The position numbers and the translations under genes were made by a program. This document shows, one piece after another, positions 560-59,790 of a stretch of 64,000 bases of DNA. The first letter of the stretch is position 1. Each line of letters begins with the position of its first letter. The notes beneath the pieces were generated by a model. It did not search any database. It had not been told where the DNA came from and saw only the letters and a program-made list of their open reading frames with translations. The stretch comes from Ginglymostoma cirratum (taxonomy: Eukaryota), in the NCBI GenBank assembly GCA_024137785.1, contig JAHRHZ010000267.1:22251644-22315643 (forward strand), in the 5' to 3' direction.

Positions 560-1340
560 TGGAATCAGGCATCAATGAAGTCCTGTCTGAACTGTCATTC
601 TTGATGCTGCACCGCTCGATCCTACTGAAGGTAATGTACCTCCTGCCTGATGGGAACTTTCCTGCTCAATTTTCTCATCTCTCAGCTCAGAACACTGCAG
701 CTGCTTTCCCCATTCTTCAGCATTCACCACATCGCTGGATTGCCTCCTGGTTGTGTAAAGTACAGCCGGCTAGGATTATGCAGCTTACTCTGTCTGCACT
801 ATAATGCACTGCATTTACCCTTGTCCTTAGTAATGGGGTTATGCACAGAGTCATCACCAATGTTTGCAGAGGGTAGACCTGACTCTCAGTACTCAGCCTT
901 ATAAGACATCAACCTTTGAAATAAATGAGAACATTGGAGCCCTCAAGAGTATAGACATCATGGCAGCTCCCAGGGTACCTGGCACAGACTTCTAGGATGT
1001 GGTACAATGATCACAGCTAAATTGTGCAGTGATGGAATGGAATCCTTTGCTCTGACAGTGCCATATCATAATGCAGCTGACCTCATCAATAGAAATGAGT
1101 GTATGGTCCGTAGTACCCTGCACTAGGGCCAAGCCAGCAGAGCCTGCTACCTAAACTGTAGTATTAACCTCGTCACAATGAAGCAATTTGATCTGTCAAA
1201 AATTGCATCACCAACAGCTTTGAAACATTCGTAGGTCAAAAGAGATCCCACATAGTCCCCAGTAAATCCTTGGAAGCAACCATTTGCAGAAAAAATTAGC
1301 ATAGTAATCACTTTGATGACCACAGGGATAGGATGGCCAC
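560..1340 (-). mobile_element. Harbinger/PIF DDE transposase (HARBI1-like) remnant, C-terminal part
   Basis: Minus-strand translations GHPIPVVIKVITMLIFSANGCFQGFTGD, KGFHSITAQFSCDH, VCARYPGSCHDVY and LHYSADRVSCIILAGCTLHN match HARBI1-family motifs in order; many stops and frameshifts. Confidence 0.85.
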
Positions 1341-1394
1341 TTTTAGAGGGAAAGTTTAGGTGTGACATGAGTTAACATATATTCCCACATGAAT

Positions 1395-2570
1395 TCTGGC
1401 TGGGATTAGAATAAGATTGAATCATAACGATGGATAAATATGAGAAATCTACCCCAAGGAACAAACTGTTACTACAACTTTACCTTCTTCATGATAGTTA
1501 ACTAGAACGAGACGAACTGGAGGATCAAATGGAGAGTTATCTTTATGAGAACAGATATGAACTTTTGAGATGTGAACGTGAAACTCAAGCTCAACATCAA
1601 GGCCCCGAAGAAGTGGAAGAAGTAGGAAGACCAGAATGCTGGAGGTCATCTAGAACGAAGACAAAATGAAGTCTTTTGCATCCACTGTCAGTGAGGGGAT
1701 GAGTAGATCATGATGTCAGGAGCTATCCCAGTGGTCTAATAGATCCATTTCAGAAAGTGGAACAGAAGGAAGTTTTAGAACTAGACAACATATTGTGTCC
1801 AGACAGATTCGGGTTGGAGATGGCGTGTAGTAACTAATCATGTTTCTGTTCTTGAGCCAAATGAACCTAGAGAACCTTCCCAGGAAGCTGTTGACTCTTC
1901 AGAGACTTTCGTCAGTGATCCCTCTGTAGCGGGTGCCAATCACTGACCATTATGTTAGACCTGCAAGTGAGAAGGGTGAGACCTGGTGAAAATACCGATA
2001 GAGATAGAACAGACGACAGGATCCAGTCATGACCCCAAACATCCGACAACACTGTTGTATATGAAAGTGAGCGGGGTGGGCTCAGGTACACATTTTCCCA
2101 CTCTGAACGAACATGGGTGTGAACTTAGGTCAGCACCGTTCACGTTCCTTTTTCCAGGATATCTGATTCAGGTCGTGGATAGGCCACCTTAGTTGACTGC
2201 CCAACAATGCTACGCCAAATAATGATGGGTGGGGATCTACGTTCATTAGTGGGCAGTGACAGTGATTCTGAATCTAGCAACAGGGGCCAAAATCAAGTAC
2301 AGGATATTTCTGAATTGTGAATCCCCAGGCATGGCTTCTGAAGGTGTAATAAGCAAGCAACAGACAGGGAATAACAGAATGGCAGTGAACTAGAGCTAGG
2401 AGAAGAGAAGGTCAGCAAAATCGAGGTTGACTTGGTCTTAAAGAAAGTGATACTTTGTGCATACTTAGACTTGCTCATTTCTTTCTGCTCAATGATGGAG
2501 AATGATCAGCCCAGGGGACTGACTAAAGAGCAGATTGACAATTTGTCCACCTGAAATGTGGGAGAAAATG
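1395..2570 (+). pseudogene. RLIM: Decayed fragment of an RLIM (RNF12)/RNF6-family E3 ubiquitin ligase, ending just before the RING domain
   Basis: Translations TIMLDLQVRRVRPGEN (~1946-1993), NTVVYESERGGLRYTFSHSER, TMLRQIM, TLCILRLAHFFLLND and DQPRGLTKEQIDNLST*NVGEN match RLIM/RNF6 motifs in the correct order; multiple stops and frameshifts. RLIM versus RNF6 is not fully resolved. Confidence 0.9.
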
Positions 2571-4215
2571 AGTATGTAGATATTCTAGGACATGTCGATA
2601 TCAGAAATGGATGTTGTGTTGGGTGTTTTGAAACACAATAAGGTAACAAAGTCCCCAGGACCTGATGGGATATATCCCTGAATGCTGAGGGAAGCATGTG
2701 AGGAAATTACTGGGACCTCATACAAAATATTCGTATCCTGTTTCGTCGCAGGAGAGGCAACAAAGGACTAGAGAATATCCAAATGTGTTCTTTTGTGTAA
2801 GAAGGGCAAACAGGGATAATCCAGGAAATTATGGGCTGGTGAGATTTATGTTAGTGGTGAAGAAGTTATTGGAGAAGATTCTTAAGGATGAGATTTATTC
2901 AATTTGGAACTATATGACTTATTAGCGATAGGCAGCATGGTTTTGTATGGAGAAGGTCGTGTCTCACAAAATTGATTGAGTTTTTTGAGGATGTGATAAA
3001 GGTAACTGATGTTGTCTATACGGACTTTAGCAAAGCCTTTAACAAGATCCCTCATGGCAGGCTAATACAAAAGGTGAAGTCACATGGGATCTGTGGTGAA
3101 CGAGTATGATGCATGTAGAACTGGCTTAGTCATTGAAGACAGAGTACCAGTGCTGGAAGAGTGTTTTTCAGATTAGAGATCTATGAACAATGGTGTTCCG
3201 CAAGGATCAGTGCTGGAACCCCTGTTGTTTGTAATATATATAAATGCTTTGGAGGAATATGTAGATTGTGTCTGATTAGTGATTTTGTGAACGACACAAA
3301 GATTAGGGGAGCTGTGGGTAGCACGGAGGGTTGCCAGAGGATACAGCAGGATTATAAGTAGACTGGAGACTTGGGCAGAGTTTAATCAAGACACGTGCAA
3401 AGTGATGCATTTTAGGAGATCTAATGTAGGAGGGAAGTATACAGTAAATGGCAGAATCCTTAATCAACATACAGAGGGATCTAGGTGTACAAGTCCACGG
3501 TTCGCTTAAAGTGGCAACACAAGTGGACAAGGTGGTTAAGAAGGCATATAGCATGCTTGTCTTCATCAGTCAGGGCATAGAGTATAGAAATTGGCAAGTT
3601 ATGTCGCAGCTGAATAGAACTTTAGTAAAGGCCGCATTTTGAACATTGTGCGCAGTTCTGGTCACCACACTACCAGAACGATGTGGAGGCTTTGGAGAGG
3701 GTGCAGAAACAATTTACGAGGGTGTTACTCGGTTTGGACAATATTAGTTATGAGGAAAGATTGGACAAATTTGGTGTGGTTTCGCTTGAACATCAGAGGA
3801 TGAGGGCAACCTGAGAAGTTTATAAAATTGCGAGAGGCATAGATAGGCAGAACCTTTGACTAGGGTGGAAATGTCAATTACTAGGGGACATAGGTTCAAG
3901 GTAAAATGGGGTAAGTTTAGAGGAGATATGAGAGGCAGGTTTTTTTTAAACACAGAGGGTGGAAAGTGCCTGGAATACACTGCCAGATGGGGTGGTGGAG
4001 TGAATACAATAGCAACATGCAAGAGGCATCTTGACAAATATATAAATAGGCAGGGAATAGAGGAATACAGATGGTGTAGAGACAAAACTTTCACTGTATT
4101 TTACTGCTTTTCTCACTGGAAAATATACAGGATAATAAAATCATTCATTCTTTCTATCAATGTGTTGCTGCAAGCTTCCTGGGCCAAAGGTCCTGTTCAT
4201 GTGCTATACATTTTG
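2571..4215 (+). mobile_element. CR1-clade LINE, 5'-truncated ORF2 RT region plus 3' end
   Basis: KSPGPDGIYP, DNPGNYGLV, DFSKAFNKIPH, SDFVNDTKI (FADD-equivalent), RDLGVQVHGSLKVATQVDKVVKKAY, TRGHRFKV; CR1-type tail GGGCCAAAGGTCCTGTT. Confidence 0.92.
4085..4155 (+). mobile_element. Short 3' tail of a different non-LTR family nested in the CR1 3' UTR
   Basis: TTTCACTGTATTTTACTG...AAAATATACAGGATAATAAAATCATTCATTC matches the reverse complement of 51062-51130. Confidence 0.6.
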
Positions 4216-4224
4216 TTGTAACAT

Positions 4225-5060
4225 CTGTCAAAGTTCTATATAGAATAGAAAACATTGGGGTGATTACGGGGAATTGTTATGTTAGATATCACAATTGCTG
4301 TCATAAACTGTAGAGATAGAAGGAAATATCATTAATACATGGCTAGAACAGATACAGAGTAGAGACTGCCACAGCAGTTTTGTGCACATTGCATATGTGA
4401 TGCAGAAGAGGAAACGTGCAGCTTCAATGCTACAATAAATTGTGCAATGAAAGCAATATGGGCTTGAGAAGTGCTGACCCATAATGCATACCTCGGCAAT
4501 GGGGGATATTATATTACCACATCATGGCAGAATCTTTCATACAGGGGCAATCAGTTGTGCCCCATAACCAATCATATTGTGTGCTTCAATCCAGAAATAC
4601 CAGAAAGAACGGGGAAAGTGGAATTAGTGGAAATATACAAGACAGAAACAGTTGACCTATTGCTCACAGAGAGTTTTGAAGATTAAAATCTTCCAGTACT
4701 TGAACAGGTATTCTTGTGAAATTTCCTTCCTACTGGAACACTCGACAATGATTCAGGAGCAGGCTCAAAGGGTACAAAAAACATATTTCGTCCTTCAGCA
4801 ATGTACTCGAGCCTTAAAGGACCACATTGATCAGATTGATACTTCAACACAGGTAGGAGGATTTGTGGAACTTGGGCTCAAACATACAAATACACCGATA
4901 GATCAAGATTATCTCCCATTGCCTTAGATTCATTTTCATTTATTCTTATTCAAGAAGCTAGTCAGATTAAAAGAAAAGCTAGTGACACAGGATAAGCGCT
5001 TAGCTACTGATGCAGCAAATGGACAGAATTTCTGTGAAAATGCAACATGGGTGAACCAGC
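4225..5060 (+). pseudogene. Env-like (viral fusion glycoprotein-like) C-terminal remnant of an LTR element
   Basis: KVLYRIENIGVITGNCYVRY; Cys-rich CAHCICDAEEETCSFNATINCAM with an N-glycosylation sequon; AYLGNGGYYITTSWQNLSY; heptad-like IQEQAQRVQKTYFVLQQCTRALKDHIDQI; Trp-rich *EDLWNLGSNIQIHR*IKIISHCL; basic tail; lies immediately upstream of a purine tract and an LTR-like end. Confidence 0.5.
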
Positions 5061-5139
5061 AATAATCCTGAAGCATTATTTGGAAATGAAATGTGAGGAT
5101 GACTCCGTCCCACACTGAGAAAAACAAGTCAAGGAGGGG

Positions 5140-5458
5140 TGCATAACACAGGCCTCAGAGTTGATATAGGATGGCACCTGGGAAGACGGGAAGTGATGAG
5201 ACCAGGGGGAGCTGGCACCTTGCCACCTTTGGATTGTGTGGAAAGCAAGATGTTTGTCTAAAACAGGCCATTTCAGAATTCGAATAATATACTGTCTACG
5301 TGACTTAAAATGTATGAATAGCTGATGAATCTCGTTAAGTTAGAGTGCTATCTCAGAATTTTTCCTGGGGTGGACAGTCCCATTGCTGGCACAGTAAACA
5401 ATCATTGACCTGTACCTTGAGACTACTGAGATTATTTAGTAAATAATCTGCCACAACA
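5140..5458 (+). mobile_element. Putative 3' LTR
   Basis: Purine tract AAGGAGGGG (5131-5139) followed by TG; ends in AACA directly before the TSD. Confidence 0.45.
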
Positions 5459-5720
5459 GCCACCGATCCTTCAGATTATATGTTCTGTTCCCTCAGGTGG
5501 TATAGTTCTGTGCCAGTGTCCCAGGACATCTACTATCTATGGCAACATTGAGCTTTGCTCACCTGGATGGAATGGCATTGAGAACAATAGACACTGGGCC
5601 TCCTGTACCTCCTGAGAGGAACTTCACCTTGTTCATGTGGAGGCTTTTCAGCAACTGCTGGAGGTAGCTTCTACTTCTGGACTTGCTGACACATCTGCTC
5701 CATTTCAAGTTCGCTAGGCT
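5459..5720 (-). mobile_element. Harbinger transposase remnant, N-terminal part
   Basis: Minus strand RRYRRPSVYCSQCHSIQVSKAQCCHR**MSWDTGTELYHLREQNI resembles the HARBI1-like N-terminus; continuous with 560-1340 once the insert is removed. Confidence 0.7.
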
Positions 5721-5907
5721 TTCATTGCATCATGGCCACAGTGATGATAATCTGTATTGTAGCTGGATCCATTGGTTACAATTCCAACAAGACATGTCCA
5801 TATGATTGAAGCCTGTGCCGTGTGTTTACCTTATAAGCTACTGCCATATGCTGTAGGTGTGACGTTGATGTAGCGTGGTGCCGTACAGCAAACATGTCCA
5901 TTTACTT

Positions 5908-6720
5908 AAACAAAAACAGAAATTGCTAGAGAAACTCAGCAGGTCTGGCAGCATCTGTGGAGAGAAACCAGAATCAATTACCCTCCTTCAGAACTGATTA
6001 TCATAGTGGAAAAAGATTTGCTGCGCTGAAAACAGCCCATGTGATGACAGGGTTCGGGCTTTGGGGATGGGTAAGGACATGGAAGGAAATGTTCAGACTC
6101 AGCACAAGCCAGAAGAACAGCATCTCACCTTCTGTTCAGGGATCCTGCAGCCATCTGGGCTCTATCAAGTTCAATAATTTTAGGGCATAAATACCTCCTT
6201 CCATGTCCTTTATCCACACCCACCTTCACCACACCCCCCCCCCCCCACCAGGTCCTATCACCAATATAAATACTACATTTACTTAGCTATTATCAGTCCC
6301 AAAGAAGGGTCACTGGGCTCAAAACTCTGTTTTCTTTCCGCAATTGCTGCCAGAAAATTTGTAAGCAGGCTAATTTGGCCCAAGAGTCCTCATCGACCCT
6401 CCGAAGAGCATCCCCCTATCCTATCCCTGTAACCCTGCATTACCCATGGCTAACCTACACATCCCTGAACACGGTGGGTAATTTAGCATGGCCAATCCAC
6501 CTAGCCTGCATTTTGGGACTGTGGGAGGAAACCAGAGCACCTGGTGGAAACCCACGCAGATACAAGGAGAACATGCAAACTCCACACAGACAGTCATTCC
6601 AGGGAGTAATCAACCCAGGTCCCTGGATCTGTGAGGCTGCAGTGCTCACCACTGAGCCACTGTGCCGCCCAGCAATTTCTGTCTTTGTTTCACATCCTCT
6701 GCAGTTGTTTGTTTTGTTTT
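5908..6720 (+). mobile_element. Older PLE insertion (inverted pLTR, ORF C-terminus, pLTR) interrupted by a SINE
   Basis: Inverted arm AAACAAAAACAGAAATTGCTAGAGAAACTCAGCAGGTCTGGCAGC; ORF end EEQHLTFCSGILQPSGL…FNNFRA*; degenerate hammerhead-like stretch near 6297-6327; tail resumes at 6670. Confidence 0.7.
6362..6670 (-). mobile_element. HE1-type (V-SINE) tRNA-derived SINE
   Basis: Minus strand GGGCGGCACAGTGGCTCAGTGG head, TGTGTGGAGTTTGCATGTTCTCC…GGTTTCCTCCCACAGTCC core, CR1-like tail. Confidence 0.92.
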
Positions 6721-33878: not shown

Positions 33879-36800
33879 AACTGAACCTGCTAATTGTAGA
33901 TCCAAATCTGTAAAGTGACTCAATCTCATGTAATGTTTCCCTATTTCACACTTTTACCCTTCCCTGCCACTTTTGTGTTATCCACAAGCTTTGAGATAAG
34001 GCTACTCTTCTAAATCATTTATGAAAATGTCAACATGTATGGGTCCTGCTATCAAGGCACATAGGACCCCATTCTTTGCATCCCTCAATTCAGGATATTT
34101 AGCATCCGTATCAAATTCTTGATAATAGACTGCCATATTGCAGCTGAGATCCTGTACACCCTTAGCATCCACATGTGCACAAGTTCATGAAGAGCAACCA
34201 GGAACAGGAGGCTCTTTATTTCTCCCCTCCTCCACCCTACTTCATGGGTGCTTGTAAATTTACATACTTCTACGATTGCTTCAGTTAAGAATAGCTAAGT
34301 CAGCGCATGTAAGGAATTGAATCTGTGGTGACATTGCTCAGTACAATAAAATTGATGCATTTTATCCTATGACCTCATAATTCAGGTTAATCCAGTAGAT
34401 TATGTCTACCACATGCCTTCTGCTGATGGAAAAATGCTGTTGTGCATAAGAATATGTTAAATATTTATTCAAAAATGCAGACTCTGTCTTTTTTTTTCTG
34501 CAACTGATTCTTTTTGCTTCAAAATTACAATAGGTTGGTTATCTTGCCAAATTTTAATTAGCTAATTTAAATCCATCCAAGGAATTAATTCAGTAATTGC
34601 TTCACGATGTTATTTTCTGCCAGTCTAACATACTTTGAAAGAGTTGCTATGGACACAGATAGTGAAACAAAATTACCATCAATTTCAACCAAACAGGCCT
34701 CATTTGAAAATTATTCCAGCATACATTTAATTTACAGTTATCTCTGTGAAAATTCTGTTTTTACTCACTATGTAATCTCGCCTTTACTCAATTTGAGCCT
34801 CAAAAAATTAAGTGAATATAGAAAAGATATAGTATGCAGTATGTACATTTCCTCAGGGAAATTCTACAAAATTCAGTGATAAACTTGATTCCTTGGCAAA
34901 AAATTGTGAAGTAGAAATTTGTAGGGATTGATTCCTAGATAATTGTGTCTGTTGCTGAGCGAGGCCTGACATCAGTTGAGGATCAGGCCTCATTCTAACT
35001 CAGTTAGTGAAGTTGGGGAGGGAGATCAACACCAGAACCAGTTGAAGGAGTTAGCTCTTAGCAGCAGTGACTGGGGGAGAGTGGGCAGTGGCTGGAAGAA
35101 ACTAGAGTTCTAAATGTGGGATAGGTACAATTCTTTGGGTTTTGTAAAATGAAAGCAATTTAAAAGTGGCCTCATCTTTTAGAGCACTATTTGACGTGTT
35201 TCTTCAGATTCAACTGCGGCATTGTAGTTACTAACTTTTAACTGTTTAGTTCTGTCTGTCAAGTCCCTTGTGAATCAGCTTACTGGCCATTGGCCACAAA
35301 TAGCAATATTGGCTAGTTACCTATTTGCACATTGTGCTTACAACTGCTTGTATGAGTGCTACGTATGGATGTATTGTTTGTAAAGAGCGAGAAATTAATT
35401 TGCCAGGAATCAATTTTACATGTAAATGTTTCCGGGGTCTCTAAAACACAGGGATTATCAATTAATTGCCAGGATACTAGACATAATCTCCCAACCAGGC
35501 AACATGGGAAGCTCTATTAAATACAAAGGTCTCTAACCTTTGCAAGTCTAAAGTGTTATTATAATCAGAAATCAGATAATCAGAAACCAAAGAGAAACAG
35601 GAGTAACAAGAGTAATGTCATTTTGCCTTTCATGCAACTTTCAAATATCCAATTTTCTAGCATGCACAAGTACTAATCATGCCCATACATAAGATAGATT
35701 CAAGGCTGCTAGTCAATTAATTTTGCAGAAATTAATTTAAAGGGCATATTGAGAAGATTCATTAAGCAGTTATGAGGCCATTTCTGCAGCATTTATCTGT
35801 TTTCATGTTGTTATGTAGGCATTTGAGATAATTGTTGCACTGGAATTTCCCTTCCAACCAAAGCCAGCTGTGATATCAATAGAAATCCTGGAAGCATCAA
35901 CACACATTTAGGCTTTCTGTTTGAAGAGAAGGTTCAAAGGAGAAGCCAAATAGGACAAGCTGCTTCAGAAATGTTCATCTACTGATACCTTGATACCAAC
36001 ATTCAGTGACAGAGGCTCCAAATCCCAGGGAATGCTATAACAACAAACAAATCTCCTTTGAGGTTCTCCCATTTCACTTGTGGTTTAATACTTTTTTATT
36101 ATCCTTCCCTATCTCTTCTTGTCAGTCATTCATTCTTTCATCAGTCTCTTGCCACCATGTCCTTCTATCTGGTCTTATACTGTTCTCTTTCTTTCCCTGG
36201 AAGTCCCATCTCCATGACTCCACTCTCTACATTTCCTCTCTCTCTCTCTCCCTGATATATCACTAGGCCATTTCAATCTCTTCTCAGCTACTTTTTTTGA
36301 TGGTTCTATAATCCTTGATGTACTAGTTCCCGAGCAAACAAGCAGACAAATGGCACAGATAAATGAAGGAATCCAGTAAGCCATGACATCGATGATACTA
36401 TGGGGCAAGCATCATGCTTGGCTTGATTCAAAAGCCAACATAGTCTGCTCAACCATACATCTCAAAATGGTACAACTATCTCCTGTCCAGTGTCCACCTT
36501 GGGAAGTGCTTTTCACAAACACTGCCTAGTAAGATTGTGTCATTTGTTGCAAAAACAGATTTGTGGCAACTAAAATGCCCCATAAGGCTGATATAGTCAA
36601 TGAGAGTGAGAGTCAACTTCTCCAATCTGTTTCCACCTCTCTCTGTGGTACAATGCTGACCCATGGAAATGATCCCGTCACTTCCACAGTCACCTCATGA
36701 ATCATCACCTTCAATTCAGCAACTATTAAATGGGAGGTTGGATTCTGAGCTTCTTCATTATTTGCCTGCAGGTTCAGAAGATTTTCACAATCCCATCTCT

Positions 36801-51059: not shown

Positions 51060-51660
51060 ATTAGATTGAAAGATTTATTATCACCTGTATTTTACAGTGT
51101 TTAATACAGTAAAATACAGTGAAAAGCTTCAACTGTTGCTATAATCCAGTGCCATTTTCAATAGTTTAAGAAGAAAAAGAGATAACTGAAAGTGAGTCCA
51201 TTTTCATTCTACTGCCTCCACCATCACTAACACCTGCACCTCCACACCTCCTCCACTGCCTCACTGCCCCCTGTGCCAGACCCACCAATGTAGAAATTGC
51301 CACTCTTCAGGTGCCATCCCTTTGGCCCTGGGCTGACCTCACCAATGCCGCCACCAATGTGGGGGTCCAATGCTGAACTCACACACGTCCCACAACCAGG
51401 AGTCCCCGGCTCCGCTGCTGTCACTGCGTTGCTGATAACCAGGAGTCCTCAGCTCAGGGCCTACTGCAACTAGGAGCTGCCATTGCTGCCTTTTTGATAA
51501 CCAGGAGTCCCCACTCTGGACCTGCTGCGATCACAGCATGAGTCCTTGGCTCCACTGCTAACTCAATGAAGCCAGGAGTCCCTGCTCTGGGCCTACGACA
51601 ACAAAGAGTCCCTGCTGCCAGGCCAGGCCACCTGTACAAAGAACAAATTATACTGTAACA
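51060..51660 (-). mobile_element. Non-autonomous non-LTR element with internal degenerate tandem repeats
   Basis: Minus-strand tail CTTTTCACTGTATTTTACTG…AATACAGGTGATAATAAATC; internal (A/G)CCAGGAGTCC motif four times plus two degenerate copies within 51395-51615. Confidence 0.55.
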
Positions 51661-59729: not shown

Positions 59730-59790
59730 TGAATGTGGACTTGTCGGGCCGAAGGGCCTGTTTCCACACTGTAGGGATTCTGTGAATTCT
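59730..59790 (+). mobile_element. HE1/CR1 3' tail fragment
   Basis: GTGGACTTGTCGGGCCGAAGGGCCTGTTTCCACACTGTAGGGATTCT. Confidence 0.8.

Follow-up and report, generated by a model that had tools for sequence, protein, structure and literature searches.

Does a fragment of the host gene RLIM inside a retroviral relic record a virus that captured a host gene and spread it? The interval in question lies in a 64-kb window (the whole 64,000-nt stretch of shark DNA analysed) and holds what is left of a decayed retrovirus: it has one LTR-like end, and an RLIM fragment is joined to a CR1 element and the CR1 element to env (Table 1). The RLIM-bearing relic appears to be one dead copy without a left viral end, and it is more likely to have come from one botched insertion than from a virus capturing and spreading RLIM. 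From left to right, the interval consists of a short stub, the RLIM fragment, a 5′-truncated CR1, the 3′ part of env, a purine tract and the LTR-like end, with RLIM, CR1 and env all in sense orientation (+). The equivalent of env residues 1–432 is absent, and host sequence occupies the place of the internal viral ORFs. An earlier note on this DNA had seen no gag or pol; gag-pol is indeed absent from the interval, and a tblastn search with an integrase query (P0135) found no match within the 64-kb window.

Table 1. Features of the interval and its flanks (positions in the window)
Feature	Position	Strand	Basis or remark
Left half of split DNA repeat	600..1340	-	multi-copy depth, joints in other copies; left limit approximate
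Target-site duplication, left copy (GCCAC)	1336..1340	.	sequence and joints in uninterrupted repeat copies
157-bp stub	1341..1497	.	neither LTR nor RLIM, no significant env match
Decayed internal fragment of shark RLIM	1498..2571	+	protein homology; aa ~233-604 of 663
5′-truncated CR1-type LINE with 3′ terminal motif	2572..4217 (end approximate)	+	paralogue alignment, RVT_1
Short separate repeat nested in CR1 3′ region	4089..4151	.	79% match to 51063-51124
Retroviral env 3′ part, with stops and frameshifts	4220..5065	+	shark homologues; tail to stop 5063-5065 by frame only
Polypurine-tract-like run before TG	5131..5139	+	sequence
LTR-like end, TG...CA	5140..5458	+	sequence; start uncertain, alternative 5091
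Target-site duplication, right copy (GCCAC)	5459..5463	.	sequence and joints in uninterrupted repeat copies
Right half of split repeat	5459..5907	-	contig alignment; ends at very high-copy short repeat near 5908

Other copies of the split repeat bear on the insertion site. The flanks had been read as a Harbinger transposase split in register between two copies of GCCAC (1336–1340 and 5459–5463), which excision of the interval would restore with a 1-nt frameshift. Uninterrupted copies of the repeat link both halves across a single GCCAC, and position 1340 is joined straight to the right half (1340→5494) in 2 contigs per run in 3 runs. In one case the joint is 1340→5502, with 39 letters between vs. 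38 in the window, a spacing that agrees with the 1-nt frameshift. Because repeat copies join the halves across one GCCAC, the 5-bp duplication is genuine; coincidence, which the earlier note had allowed for, is refuted since both flanks belong to a single repeat, each being one half of it. Contig joints thus bear out the split and the repeat nature of the flanks, and the name fares less well: Pfam searches of the broken frames gave no match to a DDE transposase domain. The repeat is presumably a Harbinger-like transposase remnant, judging from a motif.

The host-derived part is RLIM and abuts a LINE. The proposed RLIM/RNF6 fragment at 1395–2570 has its best matches in chondrichthyan RLIM (E 4.6e-51), with 255/341 residues identical to RLIM of Chiloscyllium plagiosum; RLIM therefore stands, RNF6 drops out, and the start moves from 1395 to about 1498–1501 (aa 233), where homology begins. 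The fragment carries neither the N-terminus nor the RING, contains 8 stops and about 9 frameshifts, and shows no convincing resumption of the RING 3′ of CR1 (score 33). Parent-gene contigs are 13% diverged from it, and their match stops at 2571, flush with the start of the CR1 paralogue alignment at 2572. RLIM here adjoins CR1 and not any recognisable viral sequence; microhomology amounts to at most 1–2 nt at this junction, and none is claimed where CR1 meets env. Genomic parent contigs align unbroken over 1687–2063 and 2046–2571, and the 885 nt that they cover hold no splice junction, hence no intron to lose. The CR1 3′ half was correctly recognised: its CR1-type reverse transcriptase matches RVT_1 (E 7e-5), and paralogous pieces number in the thousands. 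The CR1 3′ motif adjoining env resembles a motif at 59746. On inspection, no duplication is evident at 1498/4217, that is, around the RLIM-CR1 chimera itself.

The right part of the interval is viral, as the earlier note had proposed for its env-like remnant, purine tract and LTR-like end. The env remnant matches shark homologues (E 1e-16; tblastn E 2.6e-26), with homology over 4236–4925 corresponding to aa 433–661 of a 714-aa homologue. These homologues came from a full HMMER search (6 matches, the unrelated repeat protein P0129 being dropped). A word-index env search returned 0/110 candidates, and searches for related loci returned 0/32 candidates among viral contigs, 0/24 among metagenome contigs and 0 in an exact motif scan. 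Two env fold models were of low confidence (pLDDT 34–36). The LTR-like end, which follows the purine tract, contains a TATA-like box (5311–5321) and AGTAAA at 5393 and 5438, and its terminal CA at 5458 is probably the true U5 end. It is covered by 14–15 contigs at 5227 and by 3–4 at 5161 and 5351–5383. A weak LTR match at 36358–36492 proved scattered on alignment and was taken as chance.

No 5′ LTR was found at the left end by alignment to the LTR. When 1341–1395 and 1341–1500 were compared with the LTR on both strands, 69–174/200 shuffles scored as high. Of the interval ends proposed earlier, the CA at 5458 holds, and the TTTT start is not supported as an LTR remnant. The stub fared no better as RLIM (1341–1500 against RLIM aa 96–235; 18–22/30 shuffles as high) or as upstream env, for which three short look-alikes in inconsistent order gave a summed score of 70, equalled by 32/150 shuffles and 45/150 genomic controls. 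Pfam and Rfam gave no match for it. Contig coverage over the stub is 2–3 at 1379 and one at 1413–1466. The stub could be a proviral leader, which would favour models with two steps, and position 1341 may resemble a primer-binding site.

Copy number speaks to whether the RLIM-bearing form ever moved. In one related species the same junctions recur in three studies, 4–7% diverged and at the depth of a single contig. One of the outcomes that the earlier note held against capture, absence of RLIM from orthologous loci, was not found: the orthologue has RLIM as well, so the event is older than that species split and the orthologue test is uninformative. The other outcome, a single-copy RLIM form, was found within an 80%-identity limit, the power at 22–25% divergence being 7–54% of length. 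RLIM depth approximates the orthologue plus the parent gene, and the RLIM 5′ end (1504–1519) is covered by the orthologue only, with a single contig in each of 3 runs. Extra RLIM depth is small, with a third contig at 1555 in 2/3 runs and, in a single run, two bins that exceed expectation by 1.6 and 0.7 units. A further run from another organism (X13) gave 3 reads only. There is no sign of mobilisation; one or two old siblings could escape detection. As to the suggestion that a transducing LTR element carried RLIM, the exact 5-bp duplication and the lack of an LTR remnant at left fit RLIM having been attached already at insertion. A mobilised transducing element is unsupported, given no 5′ LTR, no 3′ RLIM-virus junction and a single orthologous copy. 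The RLIM, CR1 and LTR parts did not separate in relative age. An absolute date was rejected: 12–14% at the 2.2e-10 per site per year given in PMC4422223 corresponds to >500 million years, which contradicts the tree placement.

We favour, with a probability of about 0.45, the reading that the interval is one defective, one-ended integration in which CR1 and then RLIM were added to a truncated viral end. Integrase would have joined the right (CA) end to the target, with the left viral end truncated inside env. The free 3′ end of the truncated env may then have primed copying of CR1 from the CR1 3′ terminus, and copying would have jumped from CR1 to RLIM sequence, probably mRNA, and on to the 157-bp stub, whose end would have been attached to the target at a point 5 bp away from the first nick. 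The insertion would have reached fixation before the window's species and the related one diverged, and would have decayed since; lacking a 5′ LTR, the product would have been dead from the outset. In favour of this reading are the true 5-bp duplication without LTR sequence at left, the flush RLIM/CR1 junction with no RING beyond CR1, the CR1 3′ motif beside env, the shared sense orientation of RLIM, CR1 and env, and the single contig per run at 1504–1519. Coincidences that a later history would need are rare: a later deletion with a random endpoint would stop no more than 5 nt from the left boundary in about 0.06–0.08% of cases, assuming 6–9 kb upstream, and a later CR1 would land within 5–20 nt of the RLIM/env joint with a chance of 0.4–1.7%. 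Cell-culture work described in PMC5041404 includes integrants in which integrase joins one end, and the other is truncated and carries several added pieces of host DNA, among them pieces from other chromosomes. Two points in that account count against a one-ended reading here, since duplications at aberrant ends there mostly exceed 5 bp by far and copying is ascribed to host DNA polymerases, not to a LINE enzyme. A more specific version, which we regard as rather unlikely, is that a half-integrated retrovirus was rescued by a LINE: CR1 reverse transcriptase would have primed on the truncated viral end, switched to RLIM mRNA and closed the insertion. In an ancestor of carpet sharks, two classes of retroelement would thus have moved a host-gene fragment together in a single event. 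A former 5′ LTR may also have been lost by near-precise microhomology deletion, GCCAC being present also at 5450–5454 inside the LTR end; deletion through that copy would be expected to leave AACA, although TTTT is what stands in the window.

A history in two steps has a real, if minority, chance. A normal provirus would have inserted at GCCAC, and a later CR1 retrotransposition primed in env would have taken up RLIM (by a jump or as DNA filler), with a large target deletion that took out the 5′ LTR together with gag, pol and the 5′ part of env. The flush sense RLIM-CR1 junction with an intact CR1 3′ end and the single copy are consistent with this, as are the great abundance of CR1 insertions here, the template-switch chimeras between cellular RNA and LINEs described in PMC4476161 and the extra 5′ nucleotides reported in PMC4245944 for about half of zebrafish ZfL2-2 inserts. 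However, either the deletion happened to end a few bases from the left duplication, for which the chance is about 0.07%, or a separate event removed the 5′ LTR precisely.

Classical capture, the proposal of the earlier note, seems improbable. Retroviral reverse transcriptase would have switched to RLIM mRNA and back, yielding LTR-RLIM-env-LTR, with the 5′ LTR lost, CR1 arriving later or co-captured, and spread possible. The 5-bp duplication, the CA end, the absence of gag-pol and the sense orientation of every part all fit, and the small extra RLIM depth, at 1555 and in the two bins, counts in its favour. PMC5131818 describes LTR-mediated retrocopies in fish, chicken and mouse; some of them combine several RNAs and an Alu, and on one side four have lost their LTR remnants. 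Against capture stand the missing 5′ LTR, the absence of an RLIM-env junction, two required positional coincidences and a residual RLIM depth of <0.5 unit in 10/12 bin-by-run cells vs. 14–25 units over the env tail and LTR.

A LINE-type 3′ transduction, in which transcription of a CR1 in env continued to the LTR polyadenylation site and the product was retroposed as one 5′-truncated RNA with RLIM and the stub as 5′ additions, is very unlikely. It would make the missing 5′ end natural, with AGTAAA at 5438 placed 15 nt before the end and CR1/L2-clade duplications peaking at 3–5 bp (PMC4245944). Against it, there is no poly(A) tail, the second AGTAAA at 5393 and the TATA-like box upstream fit a complete LTR ending at 5458, CR1/L2 enzymes presumably prime at the tail that is their own, and no donor CR1-env junction was seen at 80% or more identity, a search of limited power.

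One dead locus without coding potential has small biological weight. If the single-event reading is true, the relic would be a natural germline case of the one-ended integration with host-sequence capture that PMC5041404 describes in culture, a route of host-gene duplication requiring no second LTR, and a caution against taking a short duplication and one LTR as proof of retroviral transduction. A more useful lead than the relic itself may be the shark env family, which is unclassified. Its full-length member P0132 resembles lokiretroviruses as described in PMC7947760 in its N- and C-terminal hydrophobic stretches, RSKR and long predicted helices. Lokiretrovirus env is related to PF00523 fusion proteins; P0132 gave no match to PF00523 or to a solved fusion protein at E up to 10, profile A4 also giving none. 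The interval has no pol with which to place the element in an RT phylogeny, where lokiretroviruses are sister to other retroviruses. Cartilaginous fish are absent from the list of lokiretrovirus host classes in PMC7947760.

The relic as a whole shares features with three known systems. As in the LTR-mediated retrocopies of Tan et al. 2016 (as characterised in PMC5131818), a doubly truncated internal host-gene fragment without poly(A) replaces internal retroelement ORFs, with an LTR and a short duplication at its borders. The duplication lies in the 4–6 bp range typical of such retrocopies, and the CA end is seen at the right end only. Direct host-virus junctions with microsimilarity are lacking, the 3′ junction being RLIM/CR1 and the 5′ neighbour matching neither LTR nor env; the relic also differs in having no 5′ LTR, in being single copy, and in that RLIM adjoins CR1 and the stub instead of LTR-element sequence. 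Like the LINE template-switch chimeras described in PMC4476161 (U6/L1 and related), it has a cellular piece in sense on a 5′-truncated LINE with an intact 3′ end, whereas the LINE here is CR1 and the duplication also encloses env and an LTR. With the aberrant one-ended integrants of ASLV and HIV in culture (PMC5041404) it shares one normal LTR end, a truncated other end with host pieces and a duplicated flank; unlike those, it is a fossil that reached fixation in the germline, its duplication is exactly 5 bp, and the first added piece is a LINE. Neither LTR-mediated retrocopies nor LINE chimeras are new as classes, and this relic is an odd dead variant.

The interval between the GCCAC copies is apparently single-copy, and its whole arrangement is orthologous in a related species and older than the split between the two. 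Our evidence comprises the window sequence, protein searches, and public contigs aligned once to window positions 600–6000. Three sequencing runs were informative (X1, X5 and X7; three studies, one coded organism). Because their best contigs are 3.9–7.0% divergent from the window, they do not derive from its species, and we treat the organism as related. Single contigs from these runs (depth 7–20) bridge the same junctions: flank-stub-RLIM in 2/3 runs (1087–2063 and 976–2063; in pieces in the third), RLIM-CR1 in 3/3, CR1-env in two of three runs listed, and LTR-duplication-flank (5062–5874) in 3/3.

Features of the interval and its flanks, in window coordinates
Feature	Position	Strand	Source
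Flanking repeat, left half	600–1340 (nominal left limit)	-	
GCCAC duplication	1336–1340 and 5459–5463		window sequence
Stub	1341–1497		
RLIM fragment	~1498–2571	+	
CR1	2572–~4217	+	
Short repeat nested in 3′ region of CR1	4089–4151		
env remnant	4220–5065 (frame closes at 5065)	+	
Purine run	5131–5139	+	window sequence
LTR-like end	5140–5458 (putative start; TG at 5140, TATA-like box, AGTAAA at 5393 and 5438, CA at 5458)	+	window sequence
Perfect 10-bp inverted repeat immediately before LTR end	5428–5458		
Further GCCAC, inside LTR-like end	5450–5454		
Flanking repeat, right half	5459–5907	-	
Extremely high-copy short repeat terminating right flank half	5908–5972		

The 5-bp duplication is genuine. 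Copies of the flanking repeat elsewhere run from 1340 straight into the right half (1340 to 5494, two contigs per run in 3/3 runs), and one further contig joins 1340 to 5502 with 39 letters between versus 38 in the window, confirming the in-register split and 1-nt frameshift that had been claimed. The repeat, putatively a Harbinger by motif, drew no name from a Pfam search.

The earlier note had proposed possible retroviral capture of RLIM/RNF6 by an LTR-like element. Its anatomy stands in part, including the CR1 3′ half, the env-like remnant, the purine tract and the LTR-like end. Its interpretation is upheld in part too; a spreading transducing retrovirus finds no support, as the interval is apparently single-copy and has no 5′ LTR, and contigs of X1, X5 and X7 over 600–6000 gave no evidence of one. 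Since summed contig depth is not copy number, we gave contig counts more weight and used depth as a rough ratio only. One contig per run covers 1504–1519, and RLIM depth minus orthologue and parent is below 0.5 unit in 10/12 bin-by-run cells (1.6 and 0.7 units in the others, two bins of X7). A single-copy RLIM-bearing form, one part of what the earlier note had set against its own proposal, is upheld down to 80% identity. Siblings of equal age are expected to be 22–25% divergent, and simulated match vectors, for which seed lengths were assumed, recover only 7–54% of their length, so one or two old RLIM-bearing siblings may exist; a sizeable family is unlikely. A third contig at 1555 in X1 and X5 and excess depth within 2048–2409 in one run could reflect another RLIM copy or a paralogue.

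Chondrichthyan RLIM proteins were the best of 888 matches in the protein search, which upholds the RLIM identity; the proposed start at 1395 finds no support, with 18–22 of 30 shuffles reaching as high a score. In a frameshift-aware alignment 1501–2572 corresponds to residues 233–604 of Chiloscyllium plagiosum RLIM (255/341 identical), broken by 8 stops and about nine frameshifts. The RING domain is missing from the fragment, and none resumes 3′ of CR1. A tree built from the copy and 10 chondrichthyan RLIMs groups the copy with Chiloscyllium and Rhincodon (UFBoot 99); its branch length is 0.29 versus 0.02–0.03. Of 12 columns diagnostic for that pair, 7 show the pair's residue in the copy, 3 show that of the outgroup and 2 show neither. 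Together these suggest a decaying copy that probably arose in the carpet-shark lineage. Parent-gene contigs (13.3% divergent from the fragment) align unbroken across 1687–2063 and 2046–2571 and end at 2571 in 3/3 runs; the parent gene has no intron there, so the RLIM piece may derive from either RNA or DNA.

The stub matches neither the LTR-like end nor RLIM, nor anything in Pfam or Rfam, and 32/150 shuffles score as high as it does against upstream env. The suggested LTR remnant at the left start finds no support. One or two sequences elsewhere resemble part of the stub, since 2–3 contigs cover 1379 and a single one covers 1413–1466.

We tentatively favor a single defective integration event (probability roughly 0.45), which satisfies two otherwise diverging sets of facts, from the left end and from the RLIM/CR1/env joints. 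The non-viral pieces would already have been attached at insertion, because the duplication is exact without a left LTR remnant and the chance of a later deletion ending at that point is about 0.06–0.08% (assuming 6–9 kb upstream). RLIM would have arrived with CR1: a CR1 paralogue within the window aligns starting at 2572, making the RLIM/CR1 joint flush (overlap ≤1–2 nt), the CR1 3′ motif terminates near 4217, against env, and a later CR1 would strike a pre-existing RLIM/env joint 0.4–1.7% of the time, unless deleting it. We infer the order of steps and the enzymes throughout, and the weights are our judgement. Parts of PMC5041404 describe integrants that integrase had joined at one end, the opposite end being truncated and carrying several added host pieces. 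Two points there weigh against the single event: the duplications mostly exceed 5 bp by a wide margin, and host DNA polymerases are credited. Later insertion of RLIM-CR1 with a deletion shares the joint evidence and is the less likely account, given where that deletion would have to end. Classical two-LTR capture is improbable, as the interval has neither a 5′ LTR nor an RLIM/env junction and two positional coincidences would be required. LINE 3′ transduction seems least probable, even though CR1/L2-clade duplications peaking at 3–5 bp with common 5′ extra nucleotides (in parts of PMC4245944) fit it as well as CR1 involvement generally.

Env homologues occur in four named shark genera (Heterodontus, E 2.6e-26; Heptranchias; Chiloscyllium; Mustelus), with 4236–4925 aligning to residues 433–661 of a 714-aa Mustelus protein (63/229 identical). 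In one predicted Heptranchias protein an env piece of this type is joined with sequence resembling an integrase (rve, E 0.0025), which points to a putative retroviral family. The env family of these shark proteins (P0125–P0128, P0130–P0135) had no match in Pfam or PDB. In full-length P0132, RSKR and long predicted helices are accompanied by a hydrophobic stretch at the C-terminus, a layout like that of lokiretrovirus env; the hosts listed in the portion of PMC7947760 covered include no cartilaginous fish. Predicted Heptranchias perlo proteins P0133 and P0135 have this kind of env linked with a zinc-finger array and with a p24/GOLD piece, possibly as gene-model artefacts or chimeric transcripts. 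Alignments to env homologues and orthologous contigs all end at 4925; the contigs continue 324–372 letters beyond, versus 136 in the window before the next piece (4925–5062), which suggests an indel between the species in the predicted membrane-anchor region. Depth is 0.8–1.9 units over the env core versus 14–25 over the env tail and LTR start. Paralogue depth rises about tenfold near 4905–4926, upstream of the proposed LTR start (region about 4905–5305), so many family members seem to retain env tail and LTR without the core; they may be derivatives with internal deletions, or the LTR may be longer.

ERVs are already described in sharks (parts of PMC4422223 and PMC6001957); the parts of 10.1101/2023.10.26.564294 covered have no bearing on sharks. 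The literature covered, which leaves out most subscription journals, held no report of an RLIM copy or of ERV host-gene capture in a shark. The interval shares the junction of LINE template-switch chimeras (parts of PMC4476161) but lacks the duplication that flanks such chimeras. As in LTR-mediated retrocopies (parts of PMC5131818), a doubly truncated host fragment occupies the place of internal ORFs, but the interval has neither both LTRs nor a direct host-virus junction, two defining features, and is therefore not classed with them. The interval is a dead chimera, unusual in how its known parts are arranged.
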